Below, in pieces: positions 8,991 to 35,219 of a DNA stretch of 64,000 bases. A program made the translations under genes and the position numbers. Each line of letters opens with the position of its first letter. Positions within the stretch are counted from its first letter, which is position 1. The stretch comes from a virus: positions 1 through 64,000 of IMG/VR virus record IMGVR_UViG_3300040809_000464; one strand, written 5' to 3'. The notes beneath the pieces were generated by a model. The model was not told the DNA's origin. It did no database searches and worked only from the letters and a program-made list of their open reading frames with translations.

Positions 8991-9224
8991 CTATCTATTT
9001 TTGTTTAGTAATATCTTACCAGATTTTATTCTACTAAGATCCTGCCATGAAGTTTCCCCTGTAGTTAGTAATTTAACCAAGACTTTATTAAAAGTTATAT
9101 ATCTAAGGATCTTCACATAACCATCTTTGGTCTTATATACACGACCTTCGTAGAATCTTTTATTTCTCTTCCGTCTAAGTTTAAAATTATAAACTACTTC
9201 TTTATTGTACCTCTTATAATTCAT
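8991..9224 (-). CDS. Small basic protein resembling the N-terminal repeat domain of phage HNH/AP2 homing endonucleases
   Basis: GRVYKTKDG.VKILRY...VLVK..TG......IKSG pattern; no nuclease domain. Confidence 0.45.
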   Translation of the reverse strand: MNYKRYNKEVVYNFKLRRKRNKRFYEGRVYKTKDGYVKILRYITFNKVLVKLLTTGETSWQDLSRIKSGKILLNKNR

Positions 9225-12925: not shown

Positions 12926-12954
12926 TTGACAAATTAAAGATTCCATGTTATAAT
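12926..12954 (+). promoter_or_regulatory. Consensus sigma70 promoter with extended -10
   Basis: TTGACA-17 bp-TATAAT with TG at -15/-14. Confidence 0.85.
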
Positions 12955-18745: not shown

Positions 18746-18774
18746 TTGACAAGACTCTAATTATATGATATAAT
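18746..18774 (+). promoter_or_regulatory. Consensus sigma70 promoter
   Basis: TTGACA-17 bp-TATAAT with TG. Confidence 0.85.
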
Positions 18775-20260: not shown

Positions 20261-21175
20261 TTGAAGTATTTATATATAATTCATAATAGTGTTAATGATA
20301 AGAAGTATGTTGGTGTTTCAATAAGACCTGATGAAAGGTTTAAACAACATAAAAGAAGAGAAGGTTGCCCAGCTCTACGTAGTGCAATGAAGAAATATGG
20401 CACTGACAAATTCAGTATGGAACTACTTTGTGTAGGTGATGCAGAAACAATAGACCAGTTAGAGATTGAAGCTATACAGTTGTTCAATTCAGTAACACCT
20501 AATGGGTATAATGTATCGTTAGGCGGTGAAGGTGCTAAGTACATACAATGGTCAGATGAACAAGATAATCTTTTATATACGCTTAATAACATTACTGTAG
20601 CTAAACTTTTAAATATAGACCAGAATACAGTAGCTAGACGGAGGAGATTCTTAGGTATACCAAATATACCTCAAGATTTTAGTTGTAAGGAATTTAATAT
20701 AACTAAAGATGTTGAAGAAATATTCAGAGACACATCTATAACTATTAACACTGCGGCTAGAAAAGTCGGATGTGATAAAGCAACTGTATCAAAGTTTAGA
20801 AAGAAACATAACATAGGTCTTGATATAGGTGTACGTAAGGTAAATGGTGATCTAGTAAAGTTTGAACTTACAGAGGATATCATAGAGGAATATAAAGAGG
20901 GTAAACCTTATAAGTTTTTCAAAGAAAAGTATGGTATATCAAGAAGCTTGTTTAACAGACATAGATCAGGTCTTAAACTAACAGTTAGTAATGCGATTGT
21001 TTGGACAGAGGATATGTTAGAAGTGTTATTAAATAAAGAGTACACTGTAAGTAAGAAAGCAAGATTACTAGGATTGAATTACCGTACAGTAGAGAAAAAG
21101 TTGAGGAAGATACATGACAAAAAAGAAACAAATAGTATTGAGTCCTCAGAAAGGACCTCAAGAAGAATTCCTTAA
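20261..21175 (+). CDS. GIY-YIG homing endonuclease with C-terminal HTH repeats
   Basis: YLYIIHN...KKYVG...RFKQH...E..AI....NGYN; overlaps the terL start by 62 nt. Confidence 0.85.
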   Translation: MKYLYIIHNSVNDKKYVGVSIRPDERFKQHKRREGCPALRSAMKKYGTDKFSMELLCVGDAETIDQLEIEAIQLFNSVTPNGYNVSLGGEGAKYIQWSDEQDNLLYTLNNITVAKLLNIDQNTVARRRRFLGIPNIPQDFSCKEFNITKDVEEIFRDTSITINTAARKVGCDKATVSKFRKKHNIGLDIGVRKVNGDLVKFELTEDIIEEYKEGKPYKFFKEKYGISRSLFNRHRSGLKLTVSNAIVWTEDMLEVLLNKEYTVSKKARLLGLNYRTVEKKLRKIHDKKETNSIESSERTSRRIP

Positions 21176-23648
21176 AAGAAAAGATGAGGTGTTCCTTGTT
21201 CTCTTTGGTGGAGGTGCAGGTGGCGGTAAAGCACTAAGGGATGACCAACTAGTTTTAACTCCTACAGGTTGGGTGCAGATATCAGATTTAAAGTTTGGTG
21301 ATGAAGTTATGACACCAGACAATGAAGTAACTAATGTTACAGGAGTTTATCCGCAAGGTAAAGTAGATCTATATGAAGTCACTTTATTAGACGGCAGGAA
21401 GTCGATCTGCTGTGGTGATCACTTATGGGAGTGTTGGGATGCACGTAGAGCAAAGAGAACAGTAAGAAAGACTTCAGAGCTTATAGAACGTATTAAGCAT
21501 ATAAATGTATTATTACCAACTGTAGAGGAGATAGATTACTTATCAGAGTACCAAACAGAATTACCTTTAGATGCTTACGTGTTGGGCGCTTTATTAGGTG
21601 ATGGAGGTATGAGTAGCGACAGTGTTAGTTTTACAACTGCTGATGAGTTCTTTATTAAAGAGTTCATTAAGTTAGGTGTAGATATTGTTAAGTGGAATAG
21701 TGGTAAATACGCTTACGGTATTAGAGGTTTAAATCCTACACTAAGATCGCTGAATCTTATGTTTAAGACTTCTCATACTAAATTCATACCAGATATCTAT
21801 AAGAAAGCTTCTATACAAGACCGTAAGAATCTTATACAAGGTTTGATGGATACAGATGGTTATGTCTCTAAGGAAGGTAAACTTTACTATTATACTGTTA
21901 GTGAACAACTTGCAAAGGACTTCCAAGAGGTTGTCAGAAGTCTAGGGGGTTCAGCAACTATAACAGATAAGTATACTAAGTATAACGGTAAGCGTGTTAA
22001 GTCTTATAGTGTTTATATCAAATACAATGAGGGTAAAGAGCTTGTAAGATTACCTAGAAAGAGAAACCTTGCAAGGACTAAGAATACACATAACGGTGTT
22101 CGTATCAAGAGTATTGATAAAGTTGAATCTGGTGAGGCAACTTGCATTAGTGTGGCTTGTCCTAAGAAATTATTTATTACGAATGACTTCATAGTTACTC
22201 ATAATACGTATGGTATACTTTTAGACAACCTTCTATATATCAATGATCCAAATTATTTCTCTGTGTTCTTTAGACGTACACTTGTTGAGTTGAAGACGAA
22301 TCTGTTCCCCGAGATGTTGAGGTTAGCAGAACCATTCTTATTCTATCAGAGCGGTCCAAACAAAGGTAAGCCTAAAGGTAAGGCACATATAAGCCTTCAA
22401 GATTACACAATAACATGGCCATCTGGTGCTAAGACAACTTGTGCATATTTAGATCTAGAAAAAGATTCTGACAAATGGTATGGTGCTGAAATATCAAGAG
22501 CTTACTTTGATGAATTCCAGTTTACAAGAGAATATTGTTTCGATGTAATACGTTCTCGTATGCGTTCTAAAGCAAAGATAAAATCTTGTATCAGGTGTAC
22601 ATTGAACCCAGACGATTCACACTTCTGTTATAACTACGTTAGAATATTCTTAGATGAGGAAGGATTCCCAATCCCAGAGTATAGCGGTAGAGAAGCATTC
22701 TTCTTAATACATGACGGTGTGACGTACACAGCTTGGACTAGAGAGGAATTACTTGAGAAGTTCCCTGAGAAAAAAGGCGGTATAAAGAACTACACTTACA
22801 TACCTTCTACCCTAGAAGATAACGCTATCCTTATGAATTTAGAAGCTGATTATAAAGCCACACTAGATTCATTACCAGAAGCAAAGCGTAAGCAGCTCTT
22901 ATTAGGTTGCTGGCACGCTAGTCAGTCTGAAGGGGAGTATTTCCGTAAAGATTGGGTTAAGATGGTAAATGGTTCTGCTGAGAATGCTACTAGGTGTAGA
23001 GCTTGGGATTTAGCTGGTGTAGAACATGATCCTAATAGTACAGGGTATGCTAAGAATCCAGACTGGACTGCTGGTGTACTTATGAGTAAGAGACCTACTC
23101 CGAGCGGTGTACCTATCTATAGGGTTGAAGATGTAATTAGGGATCGTAAATCTATTGGTGATATCGTTAGCTTGATAGTACAGACTTCTGTAGAAGATGC
23201 AGAACTATACGGTGATAAGTATTCAGTATTCATCCCTTCAGATCCAAACCCTTCAGCAACAGCCTTCGCTAAAGATATTGTTAGCAAGTTAGTTGAGAAA
23301 GGTATCAAGGCGTACACTTCAAGTAGTAGGGATAGCAAGATAGACAGATACTTACCATTCTCTTGTGCTTGTCAGAACGATCAAGTTGAGGTTACAATAG
23401 CTCCTTGGAACAAAGAATATTTCCTTGAGTCTGAAAAGTTAACCTCTGACAGGTTGAAACAGAAGAAGCAAAAGGATGATCAGGTGGATGCTACTAGTGA
23501 TGCGTTTATAAGATTAAACAGTACTCGTGTTGTACCAGTCCCCACCTTACCAGCATCTTCTCAATCGACAGCAACCCGTTTAGATGAGCTTCGAAGGGAC
23601 ACTGGCAGAGGATTACCTAACGTGAATGACCTTAAGAAGAACCGTTAG
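21114..23648 (+). CDS. terL: Terminase large subunit (intein-containing)
   Basis: PQKGPQ Q-motif, Walker A GGGAGGGK|T, Walker B AYFDE, TLNP, nuclease AWDLA, DWTAG and DDQVDA. Confidence 0.95.
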   Translation: MTKKKQIVLSPQKGPQEEFLKRKDEVFLVLFGGGAGGGKALRDDQLVLTPTGWVQISDLKFGDEVMTPDNEVTNVTGVYPQGKVDLYEVTLLDGRKSICCGDHLWECWDARRAKRTVRKTSELIERIKHINVLLPTVEEIDYLSEYQTELPLDAYVLGALLGDGGMSSDSVSFTTADEFFIKEFIKLGVDIVKWNSGKYAYGIRGLNPTLRSLNLMFKTSHTKFIPDIYKKASIQDRKNLIQGLMDTDGYVSKEGKLYYYTVSEQLAKDFQEVVRSLGGSATITDKYTKYNGKRVKSYSVYIKYNEGKELVRLPRKRNLARTKNTHNGVRIKSIDKVESGEATCISVACPKKLFITNDFIVTHNTYGILLDNLLYINDPNYFSVFFRRTLVELKTNLFPEMLRLAEPFLFYQSGPNKGKPKGKAHISLQDYTITWPSGAKTTCAYLDLEKDSDKWYGAEISRAYFDEFQFTREYCFDVIRSRMRSKAKIKSCIRCTLNPDDSHFCYNYVRIFLDEEGFPIPEYSGREAFFLIHDGVTYTAWTREELLEKFPEKKGGIKNYTYIPSTLEDNAILMNLEADYKATLDSLPEAKRKQLLLGCWHASQSEGEYFRKDWVKMVNGSAENATRCRAWDLAGVEHDPNSTGYAKNPDWTAGVLMSKRPTPSGVPIYRVEDVIRDRKSIGDIVSLIVQTSVEDAELYGDKYSVFIPSDPNPSATAFAKDIVSKLVEKGIKAYTSSSRDSKIDRYLPFSCACQNDQVEVTIAPWNKEYFLESEKLTSDRLKQKKQKDDQVDATSDAFIRLNSTRVVPVPTLPASSQSTATRLDELRRDTGRGLPNVNDLKKNR
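21231..22205 (+). mobile_element. Class 3 intein (325 aa) with LAGLIDADG endonuclease, inserted in TerL Walker A
   Basis: Starts Ala (ALRDDQLVLTP), ends VTHN|T; DHLW, ATCISV, VTHN give the W-C-T triplet; LGALLGDG and GLMDTDG motifs. Confidence 0.92.
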
Positions 23649-23727
23649 AAGATGGATACCTAAAGGTTTCCTAAAGGGTCTTGTCAAGCCTTATTTCGTT
23701 AAATTTACATTTCTTTTAAGAAAAAGC

Positions 23728-23756
23728 TTGACAAGATTTACTTACCGTGTTATAAT
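23728..23756 (+). promoter_or_regulatory. Consensus sigma70 promoter for the mini-portal ORF
   Basis: TTGACA-17 bp-TATAAT with TG. Confidence 0.88.
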
Positions 23757-23799
23757 AATAGGGTAAAATTTACAGAGTAATCTAAAAAGAGGAGAGAAT

Positions 23800-24009
23800 A
23801 TGAGTACTGAGGAATTTATAGGCGGGGGTTGCACTTTACATATACCTAGAGGTATTTTAGATAAAGCTGCTAAAGACAACGAATCTCCTGAAGCAGTCCT
23901 TTTGAAAGATTTAGAAAAGGATGCAGCTCTTATTTCTGATGGTACTGAAAAGTATTTGGTACTCCCAGATGTAAAAGGTTTTAGATTAACCTCTACTAAG
24001 TCAGTATAA
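23800..24009 (+). CDS. Stand-alone portal clip-domain paralogue (69 aa)
   Basis: GAGGAG RBS; residues 15-52 align ungapped to the portal segment at 25436-25549 with 19/38 identities. Confidence 0.85.
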   Translation: MSTEEFIGGGCTLHIPRGILDKAAKDNESPEAVLLKDLEKDAALISDGTEKYLVLPDVKGFRLTSTKSV

Positions 24010-24016
24010 AAAGTTT

Positions 24017-24339
24017 ATAGTTCTCCCTAAGAAGAGGCGGCTACCTGAGACTATCTTAGAAGGTATGTTTGCAAGCGAGGGGATATAATAGTCTTTAACG
24101 TATTAGGGGTGGATTGGATAGAGCCTACCGTATATACTTTAATTAGTATTACGCTTACGCCCCCTAGAACTATTTCTTATACGATAAGCCCTGAACCTTC
24201 ATGCTAAAGGGTGTGCGATTGACTGCACTTAAGAGATTCACTGCTTAGAGGGAAATACTTAATAGTATTAACTTCTGAAGTGTGGACTATACCAATAGGC
24301 TGTAGAGGGGCGTATCACTCGACTACAAGCGGCAGGTAG
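24017..24339 (+). ncRNA. Candidate large structured non-coding RNA
   Basis: Nested stems ATAGTTCT/AGAACTAT, AGACTAT/ATAGTCT, TAGGGGT/GCCCCTA, GTGC/GCAC, AATACT/AGTATT, TGTAG/CTACA; long-range CTACCTG/CAGGTAG and TACGCCCCT/AGGGGCGTA. Confidence 0.55.
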
Positions 24340-24502
24340 ATATATCTTACTCTTTAGTACTTTATAGATACCACTGATACATTACAACAGTTTCTCCTCA
24401 GACACCTTTTAAGTTTCCCCTTTAATGGCTCTCACCATGTTTACGGCTTAGAAGGTGTCGTCCCATTCTCTATCAATTCCTACCATATCAAAGGAACACT
24501 TA

Positions 24503-26182
24503 ATGGCTGAACAGTCAAAGAAAACGCCTAAGACGAATTATTTAAGGCGTAATAAAAGTAGGAATAGTAATAAGAATAAGAATAACACTATTCAGACTCC
24601 CGTACAGAAAGCAGACACAGAAGATTTAGTTATCGAAAAGGAAATCAACGGACAGTCTGTAGTAATTAAAGGTACTTCCAATTTAGATAGACCAGTCTCA
24701 AGATTAGGTTCTAAGCAGAAGTCCTACCCAGCTCTATCTGTTACAGGTGGTAAGATAACAGAAGAACGTATTAAAGATTTACAGTATCAGAATCTATATA
24801 AAACTGTCAATGAGATGGTGAACGATGATGCTGTAGCGTTAGGTTACTTCACTAAGAGAGCGTTATTACAGATAGCACTTTCTAAGGCTCGTATCAAGAA
24901 AGGTAAGAGTACTTCTCCTCAAGCTAAAGAAGCTTACGAATTTATAAAGTGGGTGTTCGATAATATTGATCAGTCTTGGTATGATATTATAAGTAACATC
25001 ACTACATATCCTAAATATGGTTTCTCCTTACAAGAGATTGTACTCACCACGATCAAAGAGGGTAAGTATGAAGGTAAGAAGAAGCTTAAGAGATTGTCCC
25101 CTATATCAGCCAAGTCTGTAGAAGATTGGGTCTTTACAGATGACCAGAGAGAGTTGTTAGGTATTACACAATCTACAGCTTGGATGAATGACACTGGAAT
25201 AGCTGGCACAAACACTTTTAAAACTGCTACAGAATTTAGAAGACAAGACAATAAAACAGATATTGCAATACCTATTGAAAGGTTACTACACTTTGCTTAC
25301 AACGCCGAAGCTAATAATCCTACAGGGGAATCTCAGTTTAAGAGAGCCTATATAGCTTGGCGTGAGAAGACCCTTATTCAGGATCTAGCTCTTGTTGGTG
25401 TATCTAAAGATATGTCTGGTGTAATTCATATAGAGATACCTTCCGAAGTACTGGTCAAAGCAGCTAACGATCCAACCTCTCCAGAAGCAGACCTAGTAAA
25501 CCAGATGGAAAGGGATGCAGCTAACATATCAGCCAACTCTCAAGCTTATTTTATTACTGCTTCTGATGTAGATGAAGTTGGTAAGAATAAACTATACAGT
25601 ATGACCTTGAAGGGTGTTGAAGGCGGTAGTAAGAACTATGATGCAGATGCTATGGTGTCTACTCGTAGGAAAGCTATCTTAGACATCTTTGGTGTAGGCT
25701 TCATTGATAATAACTCTAACAGTTATAATAGCTCTGAAGCTGGTGCTAACTTTCATGAGCTGTTACTTGAGAGTGAATTAAATTTCATACTAGAACAATT
25801 CAACAGTAAACTTATCCCAACACTTCTAGCAGTGAATGGCTTTAGAGTGGACTCTGATGAAGCTCCTTATATGGAAGCTGGTAACGTTACAGAACGTTCA
25901 AGAGATGAGACCTCTAAGTTTATCCAACGTGTATTCGCTGTTAATGGTATCCCACGTACTAAAGAGATCATCTTAAAGCTTGTTGAAGATTCAGGACTAC
26001 CTACAGAGGAACTTGAAGATTTAGAGACTGAAGAGATATGGGAACTTATGGGGTGGAATCCAGAAGATAAACCTACTAGCAGATCTTCACAAGGGATGGA
26101 AAACGGGATGCCTAATGGCACTGGAAATGCAGATGGCAGTTCTGGTGATAGTAGCTCCTCTAACAATGAGAATGCTGAGTAA
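24503..26182 (+). CDS. Portal protein
   Basis: Position after terL; YGFSLQEIV, NPTGES..KRAYIAW..K motifs; likely ATG 24503 with AAGGA RBS. Confidence 0.9.
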   Translation: MAEQSKKTPKTNYLRRNKSRNSNKNKNNTIQTPVQKADTEDLVIEKEINGQSVVIKGTSNLDRPVSRLGSKQKSYPALSVTGGKITEERIKDLQYQNLYKTVNEMVNDDAVALGYFTKRALLQIALSKARIKKGKSTSPQAKEAYEFIKWVFDNIDQSWYDIISNITTYPKYGFSLQEIVLTTIKEGKYEGKKKLKRLSPISAKSVEDWVFTDDQRELLGITQSTAWMNDTGIAGTNTFKTATEFRRQDNKTDIAIPIERLLHFAYNAEANNPTGESQFKRAYIAWREKTLIQDLALVGVSKDMSGVIHIEIPSEVLVKAANDPTSPEADLVNQMERDAANISANSQAYFITASDVDEVGKNKLYSMTLKGVEGGSKNYDADAMVSTRRKAILDIFGVGFIDNNSNSYNSSEAGANFHELLLESELNFILEQFNSKLIPTLLAVNGFRVDSDEAPYMEAGNVTERSRDETSKFIQRVFAVNGIPRTKEIILKLVEDSGLPTEELEDLETEEIWELMGWNPEDKPTSRSSQGMENGMPNGTGNADGSSGDSSSSNNENAE

Positions 26183-33389: not shown

Positions 33390-35219
33390 ATGCCGTGGGC
33401 TTTACAATTTGATGGTGTTGATGATGTGCTTGTCGTACCATGCAGTAGTACAACAGTAACAGCAACAATAAACATAAAACTTGGCGATGATATCCCAGCT
33501 TGGGCAGGAACAAATACCTATCTATTTGATGCAAGGTTAAGTAGATCGGCATATATATATAGAGCGGCATCCAATGGCAATGTATATTCAAGCAACGTTT
33601 CAAATTTTAAAGTTAACGGTGCGTCAGTTGGTGTTGCTGATCTATTTTCTGCGGTGGCTGGTGATGTTTTATCTTTTGATTCAGATGTTAGGTTTAATTT
33701 TAAATTATTCAATAAGTACGATGAGACTAGCGGTCTGGCTGGAGCGGTTGAGTATGTTGAGCTGGATTATGGCAATGGAGTTATACAGCGCAATGACGCA
33801 ACAGCCAGCGACCATAGCAACACAGGACAGCAGCCTGTACTAGTTGATACCGTTGGATCCAATGACGCTACAGGTGTTAATATGCCGACAGACGGTAGCG
33901 CTTGGGTTGATCTTGGAGGTGGTGCTACACAACTCTTAGTAGATAACTCCTCTCAGATACAAGTTTTAGGGGTATCAACGTTAGATACTACTACAGGTTT
34001 AATAACGGATAATGCTTTCCAAGAACAAACAGTAGAGAATGTAACACTAGTGAGTGGTGCTACCAGTTTGTCCGTGTTTAGCTCCTTCCAAGAACAATTC
34101 TTAGATACGGCTACACTAGATACTACAACTGGTATTACACCTGATAGTTTAGAGCAATTACAATTACTTAACACTGTTACGTTAGATACTACAACTGGTA
34201 TTACACCTGATAGCTTAGCTCAAGTACAGATACTTGAAGCTGCCCTATTAGATACTACAACTGGTATTGTTCCTGATAGTTTATCGCAGACACAGGTGTT
34301 GGATACAGCATCACTATCGTCAGGTACCAATATCTTAGTAAGTAACCTTCAGCAATTACAATTCACTGAAGAGGTCTTGCTAGATACGCTCACTGGGTTA
34401 CTTGTTAATAACTCTTTTCAAGATCAGACAATCACTAATGTCTCCCTCGGTGTTGGTACATCATTACCCGTATCTGATATAGCCCAAGAACAATTCTTAG
34501 ATAATGTTGCGGTAGATACCTTAACGGGTTTGCTTGTAGATAATACACACCAGACACAGCAAGTAGCTAATGCAAGTTTAGACACTGCAACTGCGTTACT
34601 AACTGATAGCTTAGTACAACAACAATTCTTAGAAGGTGTGTTACTAGATACTACTACGGGTGTTATACCTAACAATACTATACAACTACAGATTGTTGAA
34701 AATGTATCCTTATCTACCGATGGGGTATTATTAGCAAGTAGCTTGATACAAGAGCAGTTCTTACAAGGTACTACTGTAGACACCACTACAGCACTACTAA
34801 TAGATTCTACGTATCAAGATCAGACTGTAACGAATGTTTCTTTAGATGCTAATATAGATTTATTAGTTGCATCTGCATATCAAGAACAATATACACAAGA
34901 ATCCTCTTTAGACACTACTACCAACATTATACCTCATAATAGTTTTCAAATACAGACGGTAACTAATGTAACATTTGGTGATGATGTAGTAGTTGTAGAT
35001 AACTCCTATCAAGAGCAATATTTACAAACTGTAGTCGTGATTACTGATGACTCTGTTTATCCAGATAGTTCTATACAATTACAATTTGTAGATACCGTGT
35101 TCTTAGGTGATAAGGTTAATGGTTATATTACCCTAACTATTACAGAACAAAATAACATATTTGATGTTCAGGTACAAGAGTTATCTGAAATCTTTAGTGC
35201 AAACATTTATATTAATTAA
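33390..35219 (+). CDS. Fibre-like virion protein: variable N-terminal (LamG-like) domain plus ~22-aa tandem repeats
   Basis: ALQFDGVDD start; LDTTTGITPDSLxQxQ repeats with 66-nt period (34117, 34183, 34249). Confidence 0.7.
   Translation: MPWALQFDGVDDVLVVPCSSTTVTATINIKLGDDIPAWAGTNTYLFDARLSRSAYIYRAASNGNVYSSNVSNFKVNGASVGVADLFSAVAGDVLSFDSDVRFNFKLFNKYDETSGLAGAVEYVELDYGNGVIQRNDATASDHSNTGQQPVLVDTVGSNDATGVNMPTDGSAWVDLGGGATQLLVDNSSQIQVLGVSTLDTTTGLITDNAFQEQTVENVTLVSGATSLSVFSSFQEQFLDTATLDTTTGITPDSLEQLQLLNTVTLDTTTGITPDSLAQVQILEAALLDTTTGIVPDSLSQTQVLDTASLSSGTNILVSNLQQLQFTEEVLLDTLTGLLVNNSFQDQTITNVSLGVGTSLPVSDIAQEQFLDNVAVDTLTGLLVDNTHQTQQVANASLDTATALLTDSLVQQQFLEGVLLDTTTGVIPNNTIQLQIVENVSLSTDGVLLASSLIQEQFLQGTTVDTTTALLIDSTYQDQTVTNVSLDANIDLLVASAYQEQYTQESSLDTTTNIIPHNSFQIQTVTNVTFGDDVVVVDNSYQEQYLQTVVVITDDSVYPDSSIQLQFVDTVFLGDKVNGYITLTITEQNNIFDVQVQELSEIFSANIYIN

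Follow-up and report, generated by a model that had tools for sequence, protein, structure and literature searches.

The phage portal is a surface that bacterial immunity can read. According to the report on the SpbK-YonE system, SpbK is a TIR protein activated by clustering on the portal clips of SPbeta; the clip domains of the YonE dodecamer act as sites at which SpbK's N-terminal domain docks and drive this clustering, the clip helix being specifically what SpbK reads (PMC12847820). RAZR, as described in its own report, assembles around portal rings (PMC13017515). A free clip would be an obvious competitor for readers of the SpbK and RAZR type; the accessible text of both reports describes no portal-fragment decoy and deals with portals of a family different from that of the phage studied here. 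The clip, which lies between the stem helices alpha3 and alpha5 and makes up the capsid-distal, protruding tip of the portal ring, has other partners in the assembling virion, and two further reports present it as the docking site of the terminase and, later, of the neck proteins (PMC13450770, PMC11821841). In phi92 the C-arm of the adaptor is described as adding a strand to the clip sheet, and in phiTE the tails of the terminase and the arms of the adaptor reportedly bind between two neighbouring clips.

Avs4 is a further bacterial defence that reads the phage portal directly. The counter-defence of SPbeta itself is directed at SpbK and is not known to be a piece of a portal. Outside the phage world, microProteins are small single-domain paralogues that compete with their multi-domain relatives, a concept from plants and animals. 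The gene described below, ORF69, resembles them in being small, separately encoded and made of only one presumed interaction domain of a larger protein; microProteins are, however, known from eukaryotic regulation.

ORF69 encodes 69 amino acids from an ATG start (23800..24009, + strand) and lies between the genes for the large terminase subunit (TerL) and the portal of an uncultured estuarine phage of roughly the 150-kb class with a Mu/rV5-type portal. The window, i.e. the whole stretch of DNA that was analysed, covers the initial 64 kb of an IMG/VR record that is 88,675 bp long and has a CheckV completeness of 58%, and identical DNA was found in estuary metagenomes and metatranscriptomes. Every gene near ORF69 is read from the + strand. 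The TerL gene (21114-23648) is directly preceded by one for a GIY-YIG endonuclease (20261-21175), and its 844-aa product is split by an intein (LAGLIDADG/Hint insert). Among the relatives discussed below, contig L009 also has a GIY-YIG gene (23-886) directly 5' of TerL (1286-2746), and its TerL ORF has 486 aa and no LAGLIDADG/Hint insert. The portal gene (24503..26182, + strand) encodes 559 aa from its ATG and matches PF06074 Portal_Mu (Pfam E 2.5e-10); a GTG at 24455 is also open, and the database gene call uses the ATG at 24503. A gene for an S49 prohead protease and then the head genes follow 3' of the portal, again on the + strand.

Homology of ORF69 to the presumed portal clip

A gapless alignment pairs residues 7-54 of ORF69 with portal residues 304-351 (numbered in the 559-aa form; 25412..25555); 20 of 48 residues are identical and 29 of 48 positive (BLASTP, E 1e-9). 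The Smith-Waterman score of the pair is 91; none of 2000 shuffles of ORF69 reached it (mean 30.1, sd 4.4, maximum 52). When the ORFs of the 88.7-kb record with 40 aa or more, 377 in number, were all compared with one another, the pair was recovered again, with E 1e-7. An earlier note on this DNA had pointed to a gapless match of 38 residues with 19 identities at portal positions 25436-25549; these coordinates are right, and the match forms part of the 48-residue alignment. At the nucleotide level 80 of 144 positions of the aligned segment are identical, and 8 of the 20 identical residues are encoded by different codons, including the GCT/GCA, GAC/GAT, CCT/CCA and ATT/ATA pairs listed in that note.

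The identity of ORF69 to its own portal (39-42%) does not exceed that to portals of other phages, which reaches 44-46% for rV5-like portals (tblastn across 2.3 Gb, E down to 2e-5) and 43% for the portal P0012. Since ORF69 is as distant from its own portal as from the rV5-like ones, we consider it old and not a recent copy, which bears out the earlier opinion that it is not fresh duplication debris. A comparison with known portals gave a sequence match to the solved portal of phiTE (9cc7, residues 258-308, E 2.2e-5; phmmer against PDB) and one to phi92 gp120 (residues 265-316, E 0.1). The homology of ORF69 to the clip of these two portals (9CC7 and 21VL) extends over ~50 residues and includes the conserved ones: the residues that are invariant in portal clips (G, P, D, E, A) are kept, as is the clip signature K-A-A-x-D-x-x-S-P-E-A. 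No Pfam family was matched by the 69-aa protein at E up to 0.1, and the sole match in PHROGs was phrog_30239, a family of unassigned function (positions 268-317 of 349, E 3e-4).

The assignment of the copied segment to the clip was approached through the full-length portal, the profile of which matches phiTE 9CC7 with E 7e-165 and phi92 gp120 (21VL) with E 3.5e-125. In the portal alignment the segment copied by ORF69 is the most conserved part; it lies in ~70 residues that are bordered on each side by a helix-like stretch free of gaps, and these are followed by a loop rich in Gly, Asn and Ser and then by a long helix. The order of elements given for portals in the SpbK-YonE report is stem helix, clip, stem helix, tunnel loop and long helix (PMC12847820), and in the P23-45 portal the clip helix (residues 263-275) is described as lying ahead of the tunnel loop (about 325-335) and of the crown (377-436). 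Based on the sequence matches to solved portals and on this standard order of portal topology, the segment copied by ORF69 is likely to be the clip.

In the MAFFT alignment ORF69 reaches from the stem-clip junction through the last strand. Its residue pattern suggests a first strand, two helices around the D-x-x-S-P-E-A loop, a second strand and a shortened third strand. Compared with Portal_Mu portals, the 69-aa protein lacks wing, stem and crown, the conserved K-D-M-S-G motif of the stem-clip junction and ~10 residues from the loop that precedes the last strand. The earlier note had suggested that GFRLT of ORF69 may match YSMTL of the portal; this placement is plausible in MAFFT, although it is reached only after the 10-residue deletion. 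A full portal has wing, stem, clip and crown and forms a dodecameric ring; with 69 aa and without wing, stem and crown, ORF69 cannot be a portal subunit. The model of ORF69 stored in the ESM Atlas has low confidence (pLDDT 0.54, pTM 0.34), which suggests that the 69-mer may not fold alone. Its feature matches in the Atlas (0.91-0.92) and its structure matches (TM 0.45-0.55) were unrelated small proteins, as retrieved with this poor stored model.

Coding status, promoter and gap

A search of positions 23001-24700 with 20 family portals (tblastn) revealed no further portal piece in any frame. The best other matches had E 0.02 or worse, and weak antisense matches over 23886-24008 (E 0.02-0.5) were taken as chance. 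With no collinear portal remnants flanking ORF69, a decayed second portal (pseudogene) was rejected. The gene is a discrete mini-gene, free-standing as originally described, and its portal homology is confined to one segment with no portal remnants on either side. The codon-usage score of ORF69 is 0.72 in frame, as compared with -1.17 and -1.51 in the other frames and 0.56 +/- 0.22 for windows of real genes. The Shine-Dalgarno sequence GAGGAG, already recognised in the earlier note, is located at 23789..23794 on the + strand, 5 nt 5' of the ATG. The G+C content of ORF69 is similar to that of its neighbours, and a foreign insert was rejected on this ground. As regards population variation, the data sets X4, X5 and X6 contained no differences within ORF69; the contigs of data set X8, which comes from a relative, lie only on TerL and the portal start.

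Upstream of the ribosome-binding site is a sigma70-consensus promoter (23728..23756, + strand) that matches the consensus at 12 of 12 positions (TTGACA, 17 nt, TATAAT) and has a TG-extended -10 element; it heads a series consisting of ORF69, the portal gene and the head genes. The note had described it as a perfect promoter belonging to ORF69. The perfect match stands, but the promoter is not the gene's own: contigs L004/L008, L007 and L009 have, upstream of the portal, DNA with 79-80% identity to the surrounding block of ~80 nt (23702-23780), L006 has DNA with 77% identity and L005 a weak match, and the block thus persists in relatives that have no mini-gene. It is accordingly the promoter of the portal/head operon, with ORF69 as the first cistron. 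Exact TTGACA-N17-TATAAT sites occur three times in the 64 kb as against 0.16 expected, and none of 100 shuffles had three. The other two are at 12926-12954 and 18746-18774; all three are on the + strand ahead of gene blocks and share an A after the -35 and a TG before the -10 element.

Between ORF69 and the portal ATG lies a stretch of 493 nt without a credible ORF (24010..24502, + strand), which contains ORFs of 32 aa and 23 aa only and has a non-coding codon score in all three frames. An intron or RNA element was considered for this gap and rejected: no Rfam match was found at the gathering threshold or at E up to 1, no tRNA was detected, and the fold z-score was -1.3, with 8 of 100 shuffles folding equally well. 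The corresponding gaps of relatives are similar in size (511 nt in L004), and no DNA similarity to them was detected. Contigs from two metatranscriptome libraries span 23666-26074 and 23793-24968, covering ORF69, the gap and the start of the portal gene, at depths exceeding those of the contigs just upstream (15.4 vs 5.1 and 2.6; 7.8 vs 2.8). These contigs give a weak hint that ORF69, gap and portal are co-transcribed, as contigs from RNA libraries cannot prove transcription or a start site.

Relatives, selection and distribution

Close relatives proved scarce. Contigs of the same clade were recovered with a portal alignment, and those showing the DNA upstream of the portal were counted; their portals are 57-65% identical to that of the window. 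L004 is the same contig as L008, L012 and L108. A mini-gene is present in three of the seven contigs that show the region (the window, L004 and L007), and a clip-like ORF is absent from the slot in L009, L003, L005 and L006. The gene in L004 (2062-2310) and L007 (1100-1348), ORF82, encodes 82 aa and occupies the same slot as ORF69: the order in both contigs is conserved promoter, ORF82, a gap of roughly 500 nt and portal, as in the window. Both proteins begin with M-S-T. ORF82 is identical to ORF69 at 20 of 48 residues (BLASTP, E 7e-9) and matches portal clips with E 5e-6; in the MAFFT alignment it ends after the second strand and has no third one. An open frame, an ATG and a ribosome site have thus been kept in the same slot in two lineages with portals ~60% identical. 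A maximum-likelihood tree built from 59 clip columns joins ORF69 with ORF82 as its sister, the pair having a long stem (ultrafast bootstrap 89, SH-aLRT 91), a grouping that could be due to long-branch attraction; the tree does not resolve the place of the pair among the portals.

Identity between ORF69 and ORF82 is 25/45, 32/45 and 17/45 at the first, second and third codon positions, as compared with ~0.28 for random codon pairs, third positions being near saturation. The second position (71%) differs from the third (38%) with a Fisher p of 0.003, in a test made on an alignment chosen at the protein level, a choice by which the identity of positions 1 and 2 is inflated. The DNA of ORF82 is identical in L004 and L007 and so yields no dN/dS. 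Because the sequences compared are the mini-genes themselves, the asymmetry would be a signature of selection on the small proteins, and it points to protein-level selection on ORF69 and ORF82. The protein-level conservation that the earlier note had suspected from codon differences is supported in this way by an orthologue. The two mini-genes are 42% identical, whereas the portal clips of these phages share 71% of their residues. Judging from these comparisons, the mini-gene is a seemingly old but dispensable occupant of a variable slot, evolving faster than the portal clip, and ORF69 looks like a real accessory gene kept by selection.

Other cargo was found in the slot of the relatives: a tRNA-Thr (TGT) gene in L005 (552-627) and a tRNA-Tyr (GTA) gene in L006 (863-946). 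The L006 slot also has a 48-aa ORF (1123-1269). This slot, bounded by the conserved promoter and the portal, behaves as a site for accessory cargo. In L004 and L007 a second copy of the promoter core (L004 1434-1453), followed by a 75-aa ORF (1506-1733), is located between TerL and the ORF82 unit; this ORF belongs to no confident family, its best PHROG match having E 0.015. The portal genes of these two contigs (L004 2822-4624, L007 1860-3662) differ at 117 of 1803 positions, of which 109 fall in residues 451-540. This C-terminal cluster is a recombination patch. ORF82 and the gap are identical between the two contigs.

The mini-gene family comprises two sequence types only, ORF69 and ORF82. 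Among cultured phage genomes 250 match ORF69, each at one place only, so none of them has a second clip-like locus; in all three genomes checked (FENT2, 4MG and GAP31) this place is inside the full-length portal gene. ORF82 gave one match among cultured phages (E 0.8) and none in PHROGs. No recorded orthologue of ORF69 belongs to the phages with the portals P0003 and P0004, which are 90% and 85% identical to that of the window. A word-based search of 5.8 billion clustered proteins returned two candidates of near length, of which one, ORF69 itself, was a hit, and at longer lengths 74 candidates, none with E up to 10. In a phmmer search of 1.84 billion representatives only ORF69 was found at E up to 1e-3, a size of database at which portal matches of ~40 bits cannot pass. 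IMG/VR scans with ORF69 or the portal as query yielded no new family members, and a scan with the alignment of ORF69 and ORF82 brought back only the known L004/L007 contigs. The same alignment picked 71 stretches in GTDB genomes, none of which was confirmed, and a scan of IMG/VR with the promoter pattern picked 102 stretches, in which screening by tblastn turned up no further relatives, either of the portal or of the mini-genes. Our literature searches, one query of which was swamped by surgical 'portal' papers, found no description of a free-standing portal-clip gene or a portal decoy.

Two further small ORFs are similar to portions of larger ORFs in the record. A 77-aa ORF (8991-9224, - strand) shares 36% identity with residues 14-69 of an ORF of 231 aa that lies at 75839-76534 of the record (E 7e-7), and a 73-aa ORF (33953-34174, - strand) is 43% identical to its 120-aa neighbour (34424-34786, - strand; E 2e-8). 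Neither small ORF has a Pfam match.

Possible functions of a free clip

We propose that ORF69 originated by one partial duplication or capture of a portal gene, before the lineages of the window and of L004/L007 split. Its product would be made together with the portal and probably in excess of it, given the stronger ribosome site and the position as first cistron. It would mimic the clip and titrate a factor that otherwise binds the clips of assembled portal rings. As the clip binds terminase, neck proteins and SpbK, a free clip made with the portal would be expected to compete for a reader of the clip. As target we favour an immune sensor of the host that binds to portal clips and is set off only by clustering on the 12-fold ring, in the way shown for SpbK on the SPbeta portal; an isolated clip would tie up such a sensor and leave it unclustered. 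We favour a host sensor since the gene is accessory, patchy and fast-evolving, the slot elsewhere holds tRNA genes, and a monovalent clip would be a logical tool against sensors that work by clustering. The accessory distribution, the variable slot and the fast evolution are all seen in ORF69 and fit other accessory roles too. A site for terminase and adaptor that spans two clips counts against a mimic, as a lone clip would offer half of it. Taken as a whole, the reading of ORF69 as a selected accessory clip mimic that titrates a clip-binding factor, with a host immune sensor as the favoured target, is a tentative one, possible although short of probable. Its more specific form, a monovalent trigger mimic made in excess that blinds an SpbK- or RAZR-like, ring-clustering immune protein, appears unlikely. 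The evidence does not distinguish the clip-binding models (decoy, brake or poison) from one another.

The main rival to a host sensor as target is the timing of docking of the phage's own TerL and adaptor, a reading that we hold rather unlikely. ORF69 would modulate its own phage's packaging or head completion by binding TerL, the neck adaptor or unassembled portal subunits, thereby timing the docking or release of the motor or the binding of the adaptor, or it would chaperone the clip-binding arm until the head is filled. The location in the portal operon, directly between TerL and portal, speaks for such a role, as do the retention in ORF69 of the clip residues invariant across portals and the docking of terminase and neck proteins at the clip in the described systems; the strand that the adaptor C-arm of phi92 is described to add to the clip sheet makes a contact possible even for a lone clip. 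A core factor of this kind should, however, be clade-wide, and yet four of the seven related contigs and all 250 cultured phages with a matching portal are without the mini-gene, which also evolves much faster than the portal clip (42% vs 71% identity) and, in the shape of ORF82, does without the third strand. Patchiness and fast evolution are typical of accessory genes engaged in conflicts, and ORF69 might instead be a weapon against competing phages or satellites, binding the terminase, adaptor or portal of the rival while the machinery of the phage that encodes it has diverged enough to ignore it; the similarity to foreign portals (up to 46%; 43% for P0012), as high as that to its own (39-42%), would suit this. 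The gene nevertheless belongs to a late/structural operon and not to a prophage or early unit, and the half-site problem of a lone clip applies here too; we regard a weapon as very improbable.

A non-functional relic of an old or foreign portal, left by illegitimate recombination in a slot prone to it and open by chance, is quite improbable as well, if slightly less so than a weapon. In line with a relic, the family is tiny and scattered, the variable slot that separates TerL and portal holds different cargo in each relative, mobile elements (the GIY-YIG gene and the TerL intein) are nearby, and the stored single-sequence model has low confidence. A relic would not explain the open frame, start codon and ribosome site kept in two lineages, the 71% identity of second codon positions while third positions approach saturation, or a codon usage fully adapted to the phage; no portal pieces flank ORF69 in any frame, and the remnant of a replaced gene is expected to be a gene end and not a domain from the interior that has a start codon of its own. 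Least probable of all, in our estimate, is a function that has nothing to do with partners of the clip; ORF69 could, for instance, be a small regulator of the operon that binds nucleic acid and reuses a strand-helix-helix core recalling ribbon-helix-helix proteins. ORF69 is the first gene after a strong promoter, ahead of the 493-nt untranslated stretch, and its predicted order of strand, helix and helix would be compatible with such a regulator, but no ribbon-helix-helix family was matched in Pfam at E up to 0.1 and no such chain in PDB at E up to 10; wherever ORF69 has significant matches, these are portal clips, and the clip signature is kept.

Few phage proteins are known that bacterial immunity reads directly, and portals belong to them. 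A separately encoded, selected copy of the clip tip would offer a simple handle on what binds the clip in vivo; the small size of the protein makes pull-down, toxicity rescue and structure work ordinary experiments. Should ORF69 tune the docking of motor or neck, it would represent a new kind of assembly regulator. If the favoured reading as a decoy is correct, it would be, to our knowledge, the first known case of a phage countering a protein sensor with a harmless copy of the trigger epitope.
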